A stretch of 20,564 nt of DNA from Peribolospora baueri (lineage: Eukaryota): assembly GCA_029717555.1 (NCBI GenBank), contig JAMDHS010000035.1, forward strand, positions 186,001 through 206,564, read 5' to 3'. Of this stretch, positions 37-20,564 are shown one piece after another. Under the pieces are notes generated by a model that saw nothing but the letters and a program-made list of their open reading frames with translations, had not been told where the DNA came from and did no database searches. Both the position numbers and the translations under genes were made by a program. Positions within the stretch are counted from its first letter, which is position 1; each line of letters starts with the position of its first letter.

Positions 37-3000
37 AGCGTGGCAGATCAGCCCGCACTCTTCACAGAGTACCGCGTGCCTCTTCACCGGCTGGCGACAG
101 AGCTTGCACTCGACGGCTGCAGATCGAAAAAGGCCATGGTCAACAACACATCATCGGCCTCCGCCTTCCGGGTCGAGCGAGGGCCGAAGCTCACCTTTGC
201 TGAACGTGCTCTTGACGAATGCGTGCGTCATCCTTTCCTCGCCGCTGGAAGACAAGTCGCCTTCTGCCGAGAGCGGTGAGGGCAGCTGCCCAGCCGAGAC
301 GCCCTCGTAGCCAGCGTTCGTGTCGGCGGCGGCCTGCCTATCGAGGCTGAACGAAACCCTGGGAAGAACGTTGGACGGCCTCGAGTCACTCGCGGAGGCA
401 GGCAGCAGCATAGGCGAGGGCTGGGCGGAGGAAGGCGAGTTGGGAGACGACACCGAGTCGCGAGTCGTATGCGCTGCGCCATTGCGAAGGGCGATGGTGG
501 CGGCCGGCGACGAAGACGAACGCTCCATCTTGTGCTTGCTCTCGCTCGGGCCCGGGTCGGCAAAGACTTTAGGGTCGAGCTTGCGATTGAAATCAGCGCT
601 GATGCGGCGGAGGAAAGGCACGCTGTCCTGCGCCCGAAGCTCCTTGTGGCCGCCCCAAACGGTACAGAGCCAGTGGTGCTCGAAGAGCATCTCGGCGCTC
701 GGGCGGTACGCAGGGTCCTTGTTAAAGCATTGCTTGAGGAAGTCGACCAGCTCGGGCGAGCACTTGTCCGGGATGGGAGGGCAGTCGTCCTCGACGATGC
801 GGTACATGGCCGACATGGCCTGGATGTCGCCGTACGGAGGCTTGCCCGTCATGAGCTCGATGATGGTGCAGGCGAGCGACCAGATGTCAGCTGCCGTCGA
901 GGCACCCTTCAACTCGATCACTTCTGGCGCCATCCAGTTTGGCGTGCCCACGGCGTCATTCTTGATCTTCTCCATCGCCTTGAGGTTGAGCGAGACGCCA
1001 AAGTCGGAGAGCTTGACGTTGCCGTTCTTTGTGGTAAGAATGTTGGCCGCCTTCAGGTCGCAGTGAACGACCTTCTGCGAGTGCAGGTAGTGCAGGCCCT
1101 CGAGGATCTTGACGACGTAGCTCGACACGAGCTTTTCAGGGAAGTGTCCGAAAGCTTTGAGGGTGTGCAGGAGAGAGCCATTTTCGACGTACCTGAGAAG
1201 CGAGTGAGATACAGAGCGCGTGTGAGTGAGTGAGAGGATGGGAGGAAGCGGCGGCCCGCACGGCATTTCCGCTCCGTCGTCCACGCCGCCGCGACACTCA
1301 CTCCAAGATGATGCTGACGACGTCCGGGCCTCTTACGAGACCCTCGTACTTGACCACGCTCGGGTGAGCCAAGCTCTTGAGGAGGTCGACCTCGTTCATG
1401 AGCTGCGTCACTTCCTCCTCGCTCTTTCCCTCCAGCTTGATCCTCTTGACGGCCACCATCTGGCCGGACTGCAAGTTGAGCGCACGGTACACGCTGCCAA
1501 ACTGGCCCCGTCCGATGCAGTTGCCGAGTTGGAACGTCGTGCTTGGCTTGCCCTCCTCGGTGACGACCAGCTTGTGCTTGGAAATGGGAGAGCGCGAGAG
1601 CCGCGATCCCACCGCGGATGCGCCCTCATCGTGTGTGGTGCTGCCGAGGGTGTTGGTGTAGATCGAGCCGATCTCGGTGTCGTACCGCGATCGGAAGCCG
1701 AGGGCCGAACGTTCGTCACCAGACGTCTCGGAGCGGTAGCCGCCAAAGCCGGTCATCCCGAAGGACCGGCGGGCGGCAGAGAGATGGAGATCGGAGGAGT
1801 AGCGCATGTGCCGGTAGGCCGACCTCGGCCCGGCGGCGGCGCCATGGAGCGGAGGAGGCGCCGCAGACACGGACGAGGACGTGGGAGACACGGACGAAGG
1901 CTGGGCGAGGGACGCGGTGCTGAGGGACAGCTGGCGTTGGACTCGACCAGCCCTGAGGGCGGGGAACTCGAGCGCGTTGGGCGAAGAAGGAGTGGAAGGG
2001 GAGCGAGGGAAGGGGACGCGCGGAGGCGACTGGCTGAGATTGCTCAACGGCGAGACTCTGTTGGGGCTCGTCGACAGGCTCGCGAGGCCGGGACCGGGCT
2101 GGGAGCGGTAGCTGGGCCTCCTGGCGGGCGATCGACCGATGGCCAGCGGCGAAGGGCTGCCGGCAGGGGAAGGGAAAGCATACTCGTCCAGACTCGGTCC
2201 GGCTGAGTTGCGAGGATGGCCGTACTCGCCGCTGGACCTCCGCGTCGATGAGCGCCTCTTCGTAGGCGTCTCCTGTAGTAGCGACGGCTCGCCGCCATGC
2301 AACATCAACGAGGCCGGACCGTCCGCCGCGTCGTCCTTGGACGGCGACGACGACAACATGGGCGAGAGAGGTCTGCGCGGGGTAGTCTGCAGGGACAGCT
2401 CCTCAATTTCCTCAGCCACGCCGGAAAGGCTCTGAGCCGACTCGCTGAGCTTGCGATCGCGATAGGGCATGGAAGAAATTCTGCCCGCCGTCGTAGACGA
2501 TTCGCCCGTCTCGCTCGGCGGCTTCTGTTCGGCAAAGGTGATCGAAGGTGGTTTGACGGTACCGCTAGAAGAAGCGACCGTGCTCGCTCCGTCGTACGTC
2601 CTTCGCCGGCGCGCTTTCACCGCCACCGCCTGCTCAGCGTTCCAAGCCGAAGGAGGCGACGATGGGCGCTCGATCTCGGCCTCCGCCTGCCTCGAAGCCA
2701 CGTTCGACCGCCTGGGACTCTTCTCGGGGCGGTTGGGAGAGGCGCCGGGCGAAGGCCTCGATCCGACCGAGCTGGGGAACGGCACATCGGAGGAGGAAGG
2801 AGGCCTGTCTGGCGGTTCGACCGATGGCGGAGGCGTGAGGGGTGTGGAGAGGGACGTGGAAGGCGAGGAGGAGCGGCAGTTATGCGAAGGGGGCCTGATG
2901 GCGGATGGGGACAAGATACCGAGGGCGGATTGTCCGGTGCGACCATCGAGGGCGACCCGCTTGATAGCGAGGATGGTGTGCACGACGCGCTGGAGGCCGT

Positions 3001-4798
3001 CGGCGGTGCCGTCGGTGAGATCGAGGGTCTGGAAGAGGTCCTTGCTCCTCAGCTTGAGGTGATCCCTCGCAGCGCGGAGGAAGCGAGAGATGTTGTCCGC
3101 CCTGACAAAGTCAACGTCTCTTCGATCGATCTTCTCGATCGCGCCCAGTCTGAGCTTGTTGACGAGCAAGCAGAGCAAGACGCCGTCGCGGATGCTCTCC
3201 CAAAAGTCCGGCACCTCGCGCGCCGGATCGAGGAACTCGCCGAGTGCCTCCGCCTCTTTCTCCCTCGCGAACCATGCCAGTCGCCAAAGCCGCTCGTCGT
3301 CCTCGTTGGTCTGAGCGCCGGCGTCGGCGACCTGCATGAGGAGGAACGCCCTGGCGGCGCGTAGGCGCTTCGTGGCCTCCTCCGATTCGGCCGCGCTGGC
3401 GCTCATGCCGTCGATCCCCAGCGTCGTGTCCGTCCGTCCGGCCATGCTACGCCCAGAGTGGGTGGCCGCGGTGGCTGTGGTGGTGAAAGCGGTCGTCCCC
3501 GTGCCGGCGGTCGCCGAGCTGGTGGTGGTCAAGCCAGTGGTCGCTTGGCTCACCGTACTGGCCGGCGTGGTGGCCGCGGTGGCGCTCCAGCGCCTATTCC
3601 TCCTGAACCACGTCCCAGGAGAAAAAGCGTTAGGAGGGCGACGCTCCGGCTGTCCACCTTCCCGTCCCGCGGCAGCACCGATGACGGACGAAGGGCGAGC
3701 GTTTCTCGAGTCGGACGTGGTGGTCACGGCCGTGAACGGTGACGTCCCGCTGGAGCCGGAAGCCAAGGAAGGCAAAGGCGTCAGGGTTGGGGCGGGAGAG
3801 ACGCTACCGGGGCGAACGGTGGCGTTGCTGCGTTTGCGCTCTCGCTTCGACACACGCTCTTGCTTGACGTGGCGGGTGGTGGGCGAAGGCGGACCCGCGC
3901 CCATGAGCATCTCGATACTGTCCTGCGGTTCGGCGACGGTCGTGCGGGATCTCGAAGGAGGCCCGGGGACGGAAACGCCTGCGCCGCTGACGACGACCAG
4001 CGTGCCGTCATCGCGCTGCTCGTAAATGGGCTCCTGCGTATCGAGCATGGGGTCCGAGGAGAGGTGCAGCTCCGGCGTCGACAGCCACGCCAGCTCAAGG
4101 TTGCGGTAGCTCAGACGCTGCGGCTCGCCGAGGCTGAACTGCTGGGCATGGTGGTGGTGGTGGTGGCCTCCTGAGGCCTGCATCGCAGCGCCAACCTTTT
4201 GGAGCCGCTTGGCCCTGCGCTCACCCGACGTTTCCCCGGCGACCTCGGCCCCTTTTCCCTTCTTGTCCCTCTTTCCCGCTTTGCTCTCCTTTCGCGCCAT
4301 TCGATACTCAACCTGGCTGGCTGACTGTGACGGGGTGATGGAGGAGAATGTCATCTCCGTCGCGCCGTCGTCCACGCGTGAGGCCGACTCGCTCGGCCGT
4401 AAGGACGAGCTGCGATCGGAGGGCGTGAGGACGACAGTGGAGGGAGCAGGCGGGGGTGGTCGTGAGGGCCGCTTGGCCTTGGCAGACGGCGAAATGGGCG
4501 GCGCCTCCGGCGGCGAAGAGGACAGCCGCCCGCCGCGGGAGGCGACTGGGACTTTGGAAGAGAGCGCCGAGAGGGGCGAGGCCGTCTCGAGGTGGACATG
4601 CATTCCGGCCTCCTGCCAGTAAGAGGGGACGGGCAGCGGAGGCTCGGAAGGGTCGGAGTGGGAAGCCTGCGCGCGGTGCTGCACCGAGCTCGACCTGCGA
4701 TGAGGCCGGGGCGCGGGCGAGAGGCCGTTGGAAGCCATGGTCAGCGGCTGGTGGACCATGAGCGGCGGTGAAGCGATGGACTGGGTGGTCGCGCTCAT
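37..4798 (-). CDS. Cdc15/SepH/Cdc7-type STE-family Ser/Thr kinase with N-terminal CH domain and C-terminal C1 domain; exons 4798-1302, 1192-195, 116-37; 3' end lies outside the window
   Basis: Splicing GTGAGT..CAG (1301-1193) joins ORF 1298..5044 to ORF 151..1284, giving FQLGNCIGRGQFGSVY..VAVKRI..IILE/YVENGSL..HCDLKAANIL..VKLSDFG..GTPNWMAPE..DIWSL. CH-like segment ESIRDGVLLCLLVNKL..DNISRFLRAA..DLF..DL..VVHTILAI at about 2960-3210. A second intron (194-117) gives HAFVKSTFSKAVECKLCRQPVKRHAVLCEECGLICHA, the C1 pattern H-x12-C-x2-C..C-x2-C-x4-H. First in-frame ATG is 4798. Confidence 0.9.
117..194 (-). other. Spliceosomal intron (78 nt) inside the C1 domain of the kinase gene
   Basis: GTGAGC donor, TTGAC branch-like site, TGCAG acceptor; removal restores C1 His/Cys spacing. 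Confidence 0.88.
1193..1301 (-). other. Spliceosomal intron (109 nt) in kinase gene
   Basis: GTGAGT donor, CTCAG acceptor; removal restores ...IILE-YVENGSL in frame. Confidence 0.92.
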
Positions 4799-14006: not shown

Positions 14007-15002
14007 AGAAGGGTAACGAGGTGAGCAGCACGCCCACTGTATCTCTTCCAACGGCCGACATCGCCCGGCGTAGTCATCAGGATGGAGCCGAGGATCACGA
14101 CACCCTTCCAAGGAGAGCCGGAGCGACACGCCTCGTAACGCACGGCGGCCGAAGGGAGCGTTTCTGGCTGTAGTGCCAAAAAGGCTCTCAGCGGATCTAA
14201 CGTGTGCTCGATTGTTCGTTTATTTGCAGATGAGAGCTCGATTCAGGCTTGCGAAAGAGAACCAGGACTGTCGTAAGAAGGCTGCTTCTATGAACAGAAA
14301 GGAAGACCGTAATTATTGTGCATCTGTTGTTCTACATACAAGAAAGGGAGAAGGCGATCGTCGTCTATGTATGGCGCGTCGGAAGGATATTCAGGGAAGC
14401 AGGACTTGGCAAAGCTTTCAGCTATGAGCTGTCATTGCTATTTGTGTAAATATTACGGCGACTTCCACTGTTACCTTACCTTTTATCTACAAGCTTTCAG
14501 GCTTTCACTTGTTTGAGGTCAAACCCTACTTCCATTGTTTTTCATTAATTCAGAGATCCTGCCTTGGGATACGCCTCTCGGCTCGAAAAGCTCGACATCA
14601 GCAGACACCACGCGCTCAGGTGACGCCAATATGCAAAACGCGGTTTGGCAGTTGAGCCGAAATATTAAATATTTAGTTTGACTCTGCACGCCGTTCAGAG
14701 TGAGTTCGTCCCCCCAGGCTCGAGCCCCACCCCACATGGTAAATAACAGGCTTCGGCCAATTCATTTGGAGGGACGCGTGGAACAAAGTCCTCAAGTCCC
14801 GTGCCACTCTTCCTTGGCCCCTCTTCTTCCTTTTCTCTTCTCCTTCTCCTTTCTCTTCTCCACCGCTACCACGAGCACCACCCTGCCTCGCTCCACCGTA
14901 AGTCTGCTACGTTCATCACATCGCTCAATATATCCTCCTCGTACTATCTCGCCGCCTCTTTCCTCTTTTTGGTCTCCGTTCCATATATAGACTTGTTCAG
15001 CC

Positions 15003-15879
15003 ATGCCTTCCTCTCCGGAGCCAGAACTTCCAAGTCAGAGCCCAACAACCGAGTCTAGCGGCACCTGGCCATCCGAACTGAGCCCCGGCGAGGAGGTTTA
15101 CAAAAACTTCAAGACAAGGAGCGTTTCCCTTGTCGACGGTCAGATTTTACGAGTGCAGGATTTAGTCCGCAGCGAAACCGCAGACTTTCACTTACAGTCT
15201 CACGAAAACTACGCCGGAGCCGTACGATTCGTCAAGGCGAATACGACCATTCCCGTACCCGAGGTAAACCGCCTTGGAACAGTCGGTCCCTATGAATTCA
15301 TGTACCTGGAGAAGATGGAAGGAACTCCTCTGCCGGATGACGACGACGCAGTGATCGAGGACAACCTGGTGGCCCAAATACTAGCTTTTCGGGAGCAGCT
15401 ACGGTCAATCAAAAGCGACGTGATCCGAGGCTTTGGACGGGACCAGAAGCTTACGGACCCGCGGCTCACCAAAATGGACATCCCTCTGTTACTGTAACCG
15501 TGTGGATCGGTTCTCGAGTACCTCATTCGCCGTCTTCGCGCCCTCGAAAGACCGCACATCGAATCGCTGGATCGCCTGATTTCCCATTTGGAATCGGGCG
15601 CCATTCAGATCGAGCCGTGCGACATCGTTCTCTGTCACGGCGACTTGTCGGCGTGCAACATTCTCGCCAAGGACGGCAAAGTGACCGCGTTGTTGGACTG
15701 GGAATACGCTGGCTTCTACCCGGAGTATCACGAAGACTATTACCCCCACAAGAACGAGCCTCTGCATTACTTGGTATAGCGACGCTTGGATGGACAAGTT
15801 TCCGACCATAGCCAAGATTGAAAGATGCATCGCGATGGCAGGCAATAGGAAGGAAAGGGACATTTGTCCGAGTTCATAG
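15003..15879 (+). pseudogene. APH / choline-kinase-family phosphotransferase (atypical kinase fold), disrupted
   Basis: FVKANTTIPVPEV..MYLEKMEGTPL..QLRSI then VLCHGDLSACNIL..VTALLDWEYAGFYPEYHE. ORFs 15003..15497 and 15588..15779 share one frame, separated by a single TAA at 15495-15497. A probable frameshift near 15770 would extend the C-terminus to TAG 15877-15879. No introns seen. Confidence 0.85.
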
Positions 15880-16889
15880 AGTCTAATTTCGTCCTCTGAT
15901 CCGTCCTTCCGTCTTAGGGCCGAGACAGTCGGCATGTACTTCAGTATTAATAGCTGATGCCAACGCCAGGAATCCTACCGGTCTGTCGCCCCTGCTCCCC
16001 GCAGTCTCGATACCCCTCCTTCCTGGCCCTCGTCCTGCGAGCTTTCTCCGAGTCGTTTCCCTTGCCCCGCAGGGAAACCCCTGTATACGATGAGCGTTCG
16101 CACGATCCCTTAGAGGGGACATATGCCGACGCTTTGCAGGCAGCGAGAGCCAAGAAGAGAGTTATGCACCAGAGTTCCATCTCCTCTACTTGACGTCCAT
16201 ACAGTTAGCGTGACAAAGAGGACAATTCATTTGAATAGCGGACCTTAAGAGGATTCCAATTCGGTGACACCCTTTTCCACTACCCCTCTTTCCTCACCTT
16301 TTGTCGCTTTCGTTCTTCTTTCATTCTTTTACCTCAACCACTACCACCTCCAACTCCAAACCATGTCCCACTCCTCCGACACCCCTCGGCAGTTAGCCGC
16401 CCTCGCCAATCTTCGCGCACGAGTCCATCTCCCCGCACTTCGTAAGCACCCATTTGCCTACCTGCCGCCAACGCGATCAAGCAAAACACGAACATCGAAG
16501 TGCACGCCGGCAGACTCCCTGGTGTTTATGCTCGGCGGGGCTCTGCCATGCGAGAATGGCCGGGGTCGGTGACGACCATGCTGAGCAATCGTGTGAATGT
16601 TATCCAACCCTGAATATGTGCCGATGACGGGTGCCGACCAGTTCTGCATTCGCCAACGACGACCTAAGCTACTGTATGGCAAGCGCTTTGCGTGGCGCGT
16701 CGGAGTAGAAGCACGATAAGAACGAGGGGAGCCGCCGGATCGCATGAGTCCCAGCGGGCTAGACCGTCATGACCGCGTCGTCTCCCCGTCCAACCATCTG
16801 CCCTGTTAGACCCCGAGTGGCAGGCAGCGTTGCAGATTCGCCTCCCAAACCTCTCCATCAGGGCCCGCGTCCGTCGAGACCCACCGACA

Positions 16890-17834: not shown

Positions 17835-19010
17835 ATGGGTGGAGCAGCCAGCAAATTCCTGCCCAGCGTTTGCCTGGGCTCGTCCGATTTATCCGCAAAA
17901 CAGGAAGAGCCGGCGCGACAGGCAGGATATCAAATTGACCACGACAATGTCGTGCATCACCCGCTCGGAGCTGGATCCTACATTTTCCGAGAAGGGCTTA
18001 TCCAACACCTAAACAATCATTGCACCAAGGGTCGCATCATCCTACATATCGGTTCGCAACCGAACAGCTCTCCACACATGGGCACCATCGTCAACTTCGC
18101 GGTCGCATTCTTCCTAGCATCCAAGCTGTATCACGATCACGATCGCCCGGTCCTGGTCTCCCTCGATATCGTCGACACGGCTCCATCGGAGCAGCTTACC
18201 ATAGACGGGATTCGCTATCAACGCAGCCAGCGCTTCACGCGTGAGATGGATGGGTATATGGGAGACTTTATATCCGTACTTGAAGCCCTACGTCCCCGCA
18301 CCGGCGTTGAATACAGGATCAGGACCCAAGCAGAATTCCTGTCCGATCCCTTGATGCCGGCGGCGCTCAGTGAAGTCATACGTGACCGAGACGTGCTCGG
18401 CCCCTCGTTCTCCCCAAAGACCCGCAAGCTAGCCATCCGCGCTGCGTGTCCTCACGTCGATTGCGGACTGGCAGACAAGGATGGGGTGCGGAACGTGTAC
18501 GAAGACAACGTCATCACGTTCTCGTGCCCTCACCACGGATCGTACATCATCAATGTGTCGGATCCCCGGGATATACAAAGGCTAGAATTCAACACGCCCC
18601 TTCGTAATATCCTGCGGGCCAAGGTTTTTACTCGAGACCCGGATGCGTCCTGGATCCATGTCCCCGGAGCAGACTATGCGGGCTATTACCAAGAGCAGTT
18701 GCTCTGGCGTCACATAGACCAGCCGCTCTTGACCTTTTACTCCCCGCTGATCGTCGACTGGTCGGGCGCGAAGCTGTCGAAGAGCCTGTACGTCAGAAGC
18801 GGGGCGTACCAGTACCTCAAGGACGCGGGCATGGACTATCTGGTATCGTTTGCGAAGTTCAAGGAGCAGGGAAAGGACCTGGACGTGGTTTTTGATGAAG
18901 TGGCGGATTGTGTTGACCACCCGTATAAACTGTTCCGGTCATACAGTGTGGCGTACATCGACTCGCTGTTCAAAGGGGATACGCCGCACCAGGGAGAGAT
19001 CGGTAAATAG
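17835..19010 (+). CDS. Stand-alone class I aminoacyl-tRNA-synthetase-like catalytic domain (class I LysRS / class Ib-like HUP fold), 391 aa, intronless, no anticodon-binding domain
   Basis: HIGH-equivalent IGSQPNSSPHMGT (HMGT at 18075-18086), KMSKS-equivalent PLIVDWSGAKLSKS (18771-18785), Cys/His insert CPHVDCG..CPHHG, HVPGADYAG before the KMSKS loop; only about 75 aa follow KLSKS. First ATG gives MGGAASK. Confidence 0.85.
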   Translation: MGGAASKFLPSVCLGSSDLSAKQEEPARQAGYQIDHDNVVHHPLGAGSYIFREGLIQHLNNHCTKGRIILHIGSQPNSSPHMGTIVNFAVAFFLASKLYHDHDRPVLVSLDIVDTAPSEQLTIDGIRYQRSQRFTREMDGYMGDFISVLEALRPRTGVEYRIRTQAEFLSDPLMPAALSEVIRDRDVLGPSFSPKTRKLAIRAACPHVDCGLADKDGVRNVYEDNVITFSCPHHGSYIINVSDPRDIQRLEFNTPLRNILRAKVFTRDPDASWIHVPGADYAGYYQEQLLWRHIDQPLLTFYSPLIVDWSGAKLSKSLYVRSGAYQYLKDAGMDYLVSFAKFKEQGKDLDVVFDEVADCVDHPYKLFRSYSVAYIDSLFKGDTPHQGEIGK

Positions 19011-19135
19011 ATCTTCGTGTGAGGAGTGTTTATCTGAAGAATACATAGTATCGAGCGAAAGTGGCCTGCAATGAATGGGTTTGAATGTTCAAGTAGATCA
19101 AAACGGTTAAACGGGACTCACGGACACGAGACGAG

Positions 19136-19730
19136 TCAAAACAAGCGGATTTGATCCTCGACCACGATATCCTTCACCATGCTCTCCGTCACATAAGCGA
19201 AACGCTGCGGGAAGGTCACCCCGTACTTTTCCTGCATCTCCGCCAAGGGCAATGGATGTCGAAGCTGGTAAAGTTCCTTGATCTCGTATGCGTACGCGGC
19301 CACGGCCTTCTTCAGCCCAGCGTTGAAATCCGCATTCCCCATTCCATCCTCAACCTCGATCTCGCCCGGAGATTTGCCATCACTGATGACGGCGATGTAT
19401 CGTAGCGTCTGGTCTGGGCTGGAGGCATATAGCCTGCGGAGCGAAGTCATTAGAATAGCGCCAACGAGGGTTCATGAGTGAACTGAAGGATTGCTATAAC
19501 ACTCACCACATCCTCTTGACCGAGTTGGAGATGAGATACTTGCGAAACTCGTGGTTCTTCGTACGTGCGACAATATAGTCCATATAGACAGGCTTGATGG
19601 AAATCAGAATGTCCGCTTTGGACGTGGTCTCCTTCGACGCGGACGGGGCAGTTCGACGGCGAGATCCTGAGGACAGCTCGGACACGGCGGCTTGCCGTTT
19701 TCGCTTTGTCGAGGCTGTCTCCTCCTTCAT
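19136..19730 (-). CDS. ASCH / PUA-like domain protein, 173 aa; exons 19730-19507 and 19433-19136
   Basis: 73-nt intron (GTGAGT..CTAAT..GCAG, 19506-19434) joins ORFs 19503..19730 and 19136..19450: ILISIKPVYMDYIVARTKNHEFRKY..MW|LYASSPDQTLRYIA..AYAYEIKELYQLRHPLPLAEM..PQRFAYV, the ASCH-type pattern ISIKP.Y...I....K..E.R / YxSxP / PQxFxY. Confidence 0.85.
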
Positions 19731-20466: not shown

Positions 20467-20564
20467 TTAGGGTTAGGGTTAGGGTTAGGGTTAGGGTTAG
20501 GGTTAGGGTTAGGGTTAGGGTTAGGGTTAGGGTTAGGGTTAGGGTTAGGGTTAGGGTTAGGGTT
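20467..20564 (+). repeat. Telomeric repeat array (TTAGGG)16 plus TT; chromosome end
   Basis: Perfect TTAGGG units to the end of the window, G-rich strand running 5'->3' toward the end. Confidence 0.99.

Follow-up and report, generated by a model that had tools for sequence, protein, structure and literature searches.

The stretch of DNA analysed here, called the window throughout, comprises 20,564 nucleotides of the fungus Peribolospora baueri (GenBank assembly GCA_029717555.1, contig JAMDHS010000035.1, positions 186,001 to 206,564 of the forward strand). Near its telomeric end lie two genes, encoding a protein related to the catalytic core of class I aminoacyl-tRNA synthetases (hereafter the ligase) and a small protein with an ASCH fold (hereafter ASCH1; Table 1). 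We find strong support for the conclusion that this pair is a conserved functional module. Direct reading of the coordinates agrees with an earlier note on this DNA, in that the genes are convergent, with 125 bp between their stop codons (ligase, TAG at 19008-19010; ASCH1, TGA at 19138-19136), and lie less than 3 kb from the telomere, whose repeats start 737 bp from the ASCH1 start and 2.6 kb from the ligase start. The same note had described them as the only intact genes in about 10 kb of subtelomere, which also holds: no Pfam family was found in the 10 ATG-started open reading frames (ORFs) or the 16 stop-to-stop frames of 4.8-17.8 kb.

Table 1. Features of the gene pair and its immediate setting (positions in the window).
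Feature	Position	Strand	Description
Ligase gene	17835..19010	+	single open frame, 391 aa; class I LysRS-like catalytic core, no anticodon-binding domain
Spacer	19011..19135		125 bp between convergent stops; letters read directly
ASCH1 gene, exon 2 including stop	19136..19433	-	holds the family-specific loop GMGNADFNAGLK and a PQRF motif
ASCH1 gene, spliceosomal intron	19434..19506	-	73 nt, GTGAGT...CTAAT...CAG, phase 2, within a Trp codon
ASCH1 gene, exon 1	19507..19730	-	disordered basic/Ser-rich tail, then first ASCH strands with K-N-H-E-F-R
Telomere repeats (TTAGGG)n	20467..20564		16.3 copies at the window's end; context, outside the module

Both genes are intact and keep all invariant residues of their families. 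The ASCH1 product is about 172 aa long (19730-19136, minus strand, one intron), and the splice junction, reading KRMW followed by LY, agrees with full-length homologues. In fact, an intron occupies the identical phase-2 position of ASCH1 in 4/4 fungal loci, with lengths of 62-73 nt.

The top structural match of the ligase model (AF2, pLDDT 91) is the class I lysyl-tRNA synthetase (LysRS) of Pyrococcus horikoshii, LysK (1irx; Foldseek E 6e-9). Comparison of the two by VIA gives a Z score of 19.6 with 278 residues aligned, residues 51-386 of the model lying on residues 4-330 of the 507-residue chain. Because the match spans just residues 4-330, the ligase corresponds to the catalytic part only, and it ends at 391 aa, some 25 residues beyond the last aligned helix. 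BshC (4wbd) comes second by VIA (Z 17.1), while MshC, CysRS and GluRS score about 13. The HIGH-type motif reads PHMGT, with H81 as its histidine, and the KMSKS-type motif reads KLSKS (313-317). H81, G83, C205, C210, C231, H234, D308 and G311 are invariant in 62 ligase homologues, and K313, S315 and K316 are conserved in at least 90% of them; C205, C210, C231 and H234 form a Zn-knuckle-like set. A profile of these 62 homologues matches 1irx at E 0.0058, with H81 opposite the His of the HVGN motif of 1irx, and places the KLSKS of the ligase opposite the KLSKR of GluRS.

The ligase thus shares with LysK its closest fold, the aligned HIGH histidine, a Zn-binding Cys/His insertion and a KMSKS-type loop, but identity is only about 10-12%, and residues ~330-523 of 1irx, the anticodon-binding half, have no counterpart. 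We know of no case in which LysK is partnered by ASCH genes. Against the Pfam family of class I LysRS (PF01921), the ligase scores 10.6 bits (E 0.26), below the gathering cut-off of 27, and the best relative, a Macrococcoides plasmid protein, reaches 23.8 bits; NCBIfam holds no match for the window ligase. The ligases form an undescribed family that is derived from class I LysRS and bound to ASCH partners.

Paralogues of aminoacyl-tRNA synthetases freed of tRNA charging have repeatedly revealed new chemistry, as GluQRS, TmcAL, MshC and PoxA illustrate. MshC (mycothiol) and BshC (bacillithiol) are likewise class I synthetase-like cores, which ligate Cys to a small-molecule amine; their operon partners are GT4 and deacetylase genes, and no thiol-pathway genes occur beside the ligase among 126 neighbouring ORFs. 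GluQRS/YadB and TmcAL resemble the ligase in being catalytic cores without an anticodon domain and, in the available parts of the texts concerned, direct an acyl-adenylate onto a nucleobase, not the tRNA 3' end. By analogy, the ligase may be the kind of synthetase paralogue that acylates something other than the tRNA 3' end. It belongs to neither of these two families, being closest to class I LysRS, and the same parts of those texts describe neither enzyme with an ASCH partner. The available sections of a 2022 review of synthetase paralogues (PMC9437257) list none from class I LysRS.

Two identities were considered for the ligase and rejected. GluQRS (4a91) ranks 22nd by Foldseek (E 1.4e-5), and a GluRS-type core is not the closest one (Z about 13 vs 19.6 for class I LysRS). 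For TmcAL, PF05636 (HIGH_NTase1) gives no match at E up to 1, and true TmcAL genes stand alongside the ligase in 2/5 carrier genomes; TmcAL is also absent from the best 50 Foldseek rows and the best 50 VIA rows, which does not by itself make the folds different. We note that a distant clade of ~360-aa relatives (P0232-P0307, P0275, P0283; 25-35% identity) forms the outgroup of the ligase tree. Four homologues of 793-981 aa (P0167, P0168, P0169, P0179; 39-41% identity) carry extra regions without a Pfam family and may be fusions or gene-model artefacts. Among the 16 long or distant homologues scanned with Pfam, informative extra domains occur only on P0283 (AdoMet_dc) and P0275 (GDSL lipase).

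The ASCH1 model was built on P0125, an orthologue 83% identical to the window protein (pLDDT 75). Its top match is ZmASCH of Zymomonas (5gus/5y6c; Foldseek E 3e-6 to 4e-6, target-normalised TM 0.58-0.60), followed at lower ranks by further ASCH, EVE and YTH folds; at the profile level the match to 5gus is weak (E 0.25). The Pfam ASCH family (PF04266) matches 0/8 full-length fungal ASCH1 homologues at E up to 1, and neither do the window exons yield a match. Prokaryotic ASCH1 scores 14-19 bits, under the gathering score of 21.2, and ASCH2, a second ASCH protein of prokaryotic loci described below, passes at 24-30 bits.

In the window protein the ASCH octapeptide reads T-K-N-H-E-F-R, its Gly being substituted in fungal sequences. 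Residues K59, E62, F63 and R64 do not vary among 35 fungal and prokaryotic ASCH1 sequences, and neither does an ASCH1-specific loop, G-x-G-N-x-D-F-N-x-G-x-K; ASCH2 retains G-x-K-x-x-E-x-R (30 sequences). The K-x-x-E-x-R of ASCH1 is the core of the 'GKER' octapeptide subgroup, of which the Lys and Glu are essential for removal of N4-acetylcytidine (ac4C) according to the available text of a 2026 preprint. ASCH1 shares this motif and a PUA-like beta-barrel with the ASCH amidohydrolases (E. coli YqfB, T. thermophilus TthASCH 2dp9, human EOLA1/TRIP4-ASCH), from which it differs by its own loop and its sub-cut-off Pfam score; an amidohydrolase-type activity is predicted from sequence.

Both assignments made in the earlier note are upheld: a truncated class I synthetase-like ligase, by the 1irx fold match, the HIGH and KMSKS motifs and the missing anticodon domain, and an ASCH-domain protein, by the ASCH fold (ZmASCH, E 3e-6) and K-x-x-E-x-R, though below the Pfam cut-off. 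The localisation signals it had proposed fared less well. The N-terminal MGGAASK, read as a myristoylation signal of the ligase, occurs only in the window protein among 29 homologues inspected, and the KRKR stretch in the tail of ASCH1, read as a nuclear localisation signal, is not conserved among homologues.

ASCH1 adjoins the ligase in all 4/4 fungal DNA loci. Three fungal-type metagenome contigs (64-73% identity) share the convergent arrangement of the window, and in 3/4 named fungal genomes (Galerina marginata, Flagelloscypha sp., Mycena vulgaris) the ligase and ASCH1 accessions are consecutive on one scaffold. Over all metagenome loci, adjacency is seen in 12/14 (9/11 of the prokaryote-type ones), and it extends to 48/53 prokaryote genome loci, taken from one-genome-per-species contigs, some of which duplicate one organism (L005, L006 and L015 are identical). 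Five genome loci lack an adjacent ASCH1, three being cut by contig ends and two being true absences (L024, L032). Prokaryotic ASCH1 is 35-50% identical to fungal ASCH1, and its gene usually overlaps the ligase stop or else is closely spaced. The carriers include archaea (Woesearchaeota, Nanoarchaeia, Pacearchaeota) and bacteria (Saccharibacteria, WWE3, Peribacteria, gut Bacilli/Mollicutes, Clostridia, Muribaculaceae, Gastranaerophilales, Thermoactinomycetaceae).

The two activities are also joined in single polypeptides. In a Mollicutes metagenome-assembled genome (MAG), ligase and ASCH1 are fused in one 501-aa ORF, and a second locus gives such a fusion if its one TGA is read as Trp. In a Streptomyces plasmid (L070 2395-5314) the ligase is fused to an ASCH2-type domain instead, in a 478-aa ORF; upstream of this fused gene lie a hypothetical protein and a 188-aa P-loop 'ATP-binding protein'. 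The second ASCH gene, ASCH2, follows ASCH1 in 33/53 loci, is doubled in five, and is absent from 4/4 fungal loci.

Several loci depart from this plan. In L038, L049, L051, L062 and L066, the ASCH2 downstream of ASCH1 has 232-233 aa and two tandem ASCH domains, which gives three ASCH domains per operon. In L011 (11488-12314) and L017, ASCH2 is a frame-broken remnant followed by a Rieske [2Fe-2S] protein. In the Pacearchaeota-type loci L008 (4058-5924) and L024 (7959-9825), an overlapping class I S-adenosylmethionine (SAM) methyltransferase gene follows the ligase in place of the ASCH genes.

We weighed whether the two genes might be neighbours by chance, or relics in decay, that do not function together in the fungus of the window. 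The pair is subtelomeric, beside ~13 kb without recognisable genes, and the ligase copy of a related organism looks damaged; yet both window genes are intact with every invariant residue kept, both have been under long-term purifying selection, and adjacency that recurs in fungi, bacteria and archaea, together with the fusions, contradicts chance. We consider this explanation very improbable. The caution in the earlier note that adjacency may be chance is countered by the same recurrence, and its proposal of a functional, mobile two-gene unit is favoured by adjacency, fusions, congruent distances and plasmid and phage carriage. It had named unlinked homologues with incongruent distributions, lacking any interaction, as grounds for giving up the idea; as to linkage and distribution, the homologues proved linked and congruent. 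The subtelomeric setting it emphasised is true of the window and is no speciality of the pair, since related fungal contigs hold the pair among ordinary genes.

Ligase and ASCH1 appear to have travelled together. Distances between ligases and between ASCH1 proteins correlate across 44 cognate pairs (Mantel r 0.915, a value reached in 0/2000 permutations), a correlation that relatedness alone inflates. The two trees recover the same clades, in which phyla are intermixed, and this speaks for joint transfer. Sequence comparison indicates that long-term purifying selection has acted on both genes: dN/dS is 0.15 for the ligase and 0.17 for ASCH1 in L001-L003, the sole unsaturated pair; comparisons of the window with its relatives give dN values of 0.13-0.30 at saturated dS.

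In a quick maximum-likelihood tree of 75 rows, built without partial sequences and proteins outside 330-420 aa, the fungal ligases (18 named and 5 unnamed representatives) form one clade (SH-aLRT 99), within which the window ligase nests among Agaricales. This clade stands in a polytomy with prokaryote clades, and a prokaryote-to-fungus transfer is suggested by the breadth of the distribution and the operon structure alone. Fungal ASCH1 was seen in many Agaricomycetes, one Dacrymycete and one Pezizales species among the best 120 of 190 matches, none of which came from Aspergillus or Onygenales; among the matches listed, ligase homologues span a far wider range of fungi than ASCH1 does. GC content is 45-49% in the related fungal contigs, and GC at third codon positions is 0.67 in the ligase gene vs 0.80 in a kinase gene of the same window; a later fungus-to-fungus transfer into the window's subtelomere is possible. 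In the fungal form, the operon would have become two convergent genes with their own promoters, and ASCH1 would have gained an intron and a basic tail; the second ASCH gene is absent.

The module is carried by mobile elements. Two mobilizable Macrococcus/Macrococcoides plasmids hold, in order, genes for a helix-turn-helix (HTH) protein, a major facilitator superfamily transporter and another HTH protein, then two ATP-grasp ligases, the ligase and ASCH1, then a tyrosine recombinase. In a Pantoea plasmid, the operon encodes a SAM-methyltransferase, the ligase (hhalign E 2e-75), a LOG-family protein, a DMT transporter and a non-canonical nucleoside triphosphate (NTP) pyrophosphatase. In the temperate Streptomyces phages Mojorita and Picard, a gene labelled 'tRNA synthetase' encodes a member of the ligase family (hhalign E 1.7e-50); it lies beside the serine integrase and next to an overlapping ASCH gene.

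A survey of 126 ORFs at 24 prokaryote loci reveals neighbours of nucleotide metabolism, namely PNP_UDP_1 and a pyrimidine nucleoside phosphorylase (PyNP; both L005), a dCMP/cytidine deaminase (L007), NUDIX proteins (2 loci), NTPase_I-T, nucleoside deoxyribosyltransferase and SLOG. Neighbours at the fungal loci are ordinary: a GEN1-like nuclease, an alpha/beta hydrolase, a histidine phosphatase and a UCH peptidase.

The reading that we favour, with a confidence just short of even, is that the pair is the fungal form of a conserved mobile module in which an ATP-dependent acyl or aminoacyl ligase is combined with an ASCH protein acting on a cytosine-type base of a free nucleotide or of RNA. The ligase, derived from LysRS, would retain the HIGH and KMSKS motifs for ATP binding as well as the Zn knuckle, but not the anticodon reader; it may activate a carboxylate, from an amino acid or a small acid, as the acyl-AMP. 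The ASCH pocket (K-x-x-E-x-R) could hold a cytosine-type base, whose exocyclic amine would receive the acyl group, or from which the group would be trimmed later. As its target, a free nucleotide or nucleoside would be more probable than the tRNA-Lys 3' end, and the product would be a modified nucleotide or a peptidyl-nucleoside-type metabolite. Neighbouring genes for LOG proteins, NTP pyrophosphatases, phosphorylases, exporters and ATP-grasp ligases speak for a free nucleotide or nucleoside as against tRNA, and the occurrence of two independent fusions is easier to reconcile with a joint enzyme or with consecutive steps than with pure antagonism. A complex prediction for ligase 30-391 with Galerina ASCH1 38-172 scored 0.00 with the supplied alignments unused, and is evidence neither way.

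ASCH proteins have only recently been proposed as ac4C erasers, in preprints whose available texts state that they hydrolyse N4-acylcytidine, free or in tRNA. In these texts, YqfB and EOLA1 act on free ac4C, TmcA shares operons with YqfB-type ASCH genes, and NAT10-like acetyltransferases carry a fused ASCH domain. These operons and fusions are a precedent for a cytidine-N4 writer beside or fused to ASCH; the partner there is an acetyl-CoA-dependent GNAT, whereas here it is an ATP-dependent synthetase-like ligase. The word 'synthetase' occurs 0 times in the main text of the EOLA1 preprint, whose Figure S1a maps ASCH gene contexts and may include the present one. We found no description of the ligase family or of its pairing with ASCH in the literature short of the preprints' supplements.

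Alternatively, and in our view improbably, the module modifies tRNA, the ligase acylating a cytidine or another tRNA base and ASCH1 and ASCH2 serving as RNA-binding adaptor and as eraser or proofreader. Such a role has models in GluQRS, a catalytic-core-only paralogue that acts on the anticodon base queuosine (available sections of PMC9437257), and in TmcAL, which the available text of a preprint describes as a synthetase-type enzyme making ac4C at C34 from acetate and ATP; according to one preprint, 19/19 ASCH proteins tested removed ac4C from tRNA. The Zn knuckle and stem-contact-like C-terminal class I helices kept in the ligase, as well as the basic tail of fungal ASCH1, would suit binding to tRNA. 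However, the 126 ORFs include no conserved neighbour related to tRNA, and the contexts with LOG, NTP pyrophosphatase, nucleoside phosphorylase, exporter and ATP-grasp ligase genes speak for small molecules. A mobile, patchy module would also be unusual for housekeeping tRNA modification. TmcAL (PF05636) genes coexist with the cassette in 2/5 genomes checked, so the ligase is not simply a TmcAL substitute.

In the other 3/5 genomes TmcAL was not found, and a TmcA-type GNAT was found in 0/5, all of them incomplete MAGs. This scarcity of writers fits a salvage role, in which the ASCH proteins would strip N4-acyl groups off scavenged cytidines and the ligase would recycle the released acid or a related intermediate. 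The small genomes of the hosts (DPANN, the candidate phyla radiation (CPR), Mollicutes), the phosphorylases, cytidine/dCMP deaminase, NUDIX and NTPase neighbours, and the action of YqfB and EOLA1 on free ac4C, as given in the available preprint text, all agree with it. Nevertheless, salvage leaves no obvious task for an ATP-dependent adenylating enzyme, the best-conserved member of the module; the fungal loci have no salvage neighbours, and the exporters and ATP-grasp ligases of the plasmid operons fit synthesis. We regard salvage as quite improbable.

Several observations weigh against the reading of an acyl ligase paired with a base-binding ASCH protein. The acyl donor and acceptor are guesses, and a writer and a hydrolase of one bond in one operon or polypeptide could form a futile cycle, unless ASCH is a transferase, a proofreader or a processing step. 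Pfam misses fungal ASCH1 and scores the ligase below the LysRS cut-off. In Sphaerobolus stellatus, the inspected ligase and ASCH copies lie on separate scaffolds. Ligase homologues occur in Aspergillus, Onygenales, Orbilia and Rhizophagus, and no ASCH1 of the same taxa is among the best 120 of 190 matches; these cases, together with L024 and L032, which lack ASCH altogether, indicate that ASCH is not always needed. Many Firmicute loci have mobility or defence genes as neighbours in place of nucleotide enzymes, among them one phage integrase, serine recombinases (two), type III restriction-modification (R-M) systems (two), Abi_2 and HicB, and such mixed themes fit a defence or conflict role as well.

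Contigs of a closely related organism (X3, X4) add to these points. They carry the pair at ~99.4% identity, with H81Y (window 18075) at the invariant HIGH histidine of the ligase and an opposite-strand joint at 18843-18940 that rearranges its 3' end, a joint that could be an assembly artefact; ASCH1 shows only T5I and one synonymous change. H81Y and the rearranged end suggest that the module may be dispensable in this lineage.

The same pattern, a damaged ligase beside a nearly unchanged ASCH1, fits the loss of a costly or dispensable ligase and counts in favour of a toxin-antidote or anti-phage conflict module; the comparison amounts to two strains' worth of data. In such a module, tRNA or nucleotides would receive a harmful adduct from the ligase and be cleared of it by the ASCH amidohydrolase, so that the element is stabilised or an infection aborted. 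DarT/DarG is a precedent for such a writer and eraser. The patchy distribution across domains (DPANN, CPR, Firmicutes, Bacteroidota, fungi), the carriage on small mobilizable plasmids and beside the integrase of temperate Streptomyces phages, and the integrase, recombinase, type III R-M, Abi_2 and HicB neighbours are all consistent with conflict. ASCH1 also matches the PADLOC candidate defence protein PDC-M11B (E 9e-17), but the ligase has no PADLOC match at E up to 0.1, and PDC-M11 is therefore not complete, its A gene being missing.

A parallel is found in Escherichia phage PhiR47_2, where an ASCH1-like protein (hhalign prob 98.2, E 3.9e-14), annotated by its depositors as 'GevA antitoxin', lies downstream of a 357-aa 'GevT toxin', the two standing between cI and kil. 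Like the ligase and ASCH1, GevAT is a two-gene unit, formed by a gene of ~360 aa and an ASCH gene of ~125 aa that overlap. GevA passes as Pfam ASCH (35 bits) and lacks the G-x-G-N-x-D-F-N loop in the aligned stretch, and GevT is no homologue of the ligase (hhalign prob 0.4). As we found no paper on GevAT, its 'antitoxin' label rests on annotation only. Moreover, both activities occur in one polypeptide in two independent ways, several loci lie within biosynthesis-like or salvage-like operons, and ligases that lack an ASCH partner, as in 2 assessable prokaryote loci and, it seems, many fungi, would be hard to sustain as toxins. We thus judge a conflict role unlikely.

Returning to the acyl ligase with its ASCH partner, a bolder version is possible, if somewhat doubtful: an inter-domain mobile module may install and control a new aminoacyl or acyl mark on a cytosine-type exocyclic amine of nucleotides or RNA, ASCH being one half of a two-part enzyme, the one for acyl transfer or hydrolysis. 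Fungi would have acquired the operon once from prokaryotes and split it into two genes, and it would since have moved between fungal lineages, here into the subtelomere of a host with much more GC-rich genes.

A ligase locked to ASCH genes across archaea, CPR, Firmicutes, plasmids, phages and fungi, and twice fused to them, is a directly testable lead to a new nucleobase acylation, and the pairing hints at the role of the ASCH domain when joined to a writer. As an example of an operon common to prokaryotes and fungi the module is also clear-cut, and the cultured Macrococcus plasmids and Streptomyces phages are ready experimental systems.

Elsewhere in the window, positions 151-4798 (minus strand) hold the kinase gene mentioned above, which encodes a CH domain (calponin-homology/CDC24-type) and a protein kinase domain and has a short intron near 1267-1297. 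Between 4500 and 9000, ~4 kb have a strongly purine-rich plus strand (GC skew 0.3-0.46, AT skew ~0.5) with several microsatellites and no Pfam-recognisable ORF. The region 15000-16400 is multi-copy, with a contig depth ~10x that of the gene pair and many variant copies in the runs of this and the related organism, and is probably a dispersed or subtelomeric repeat.

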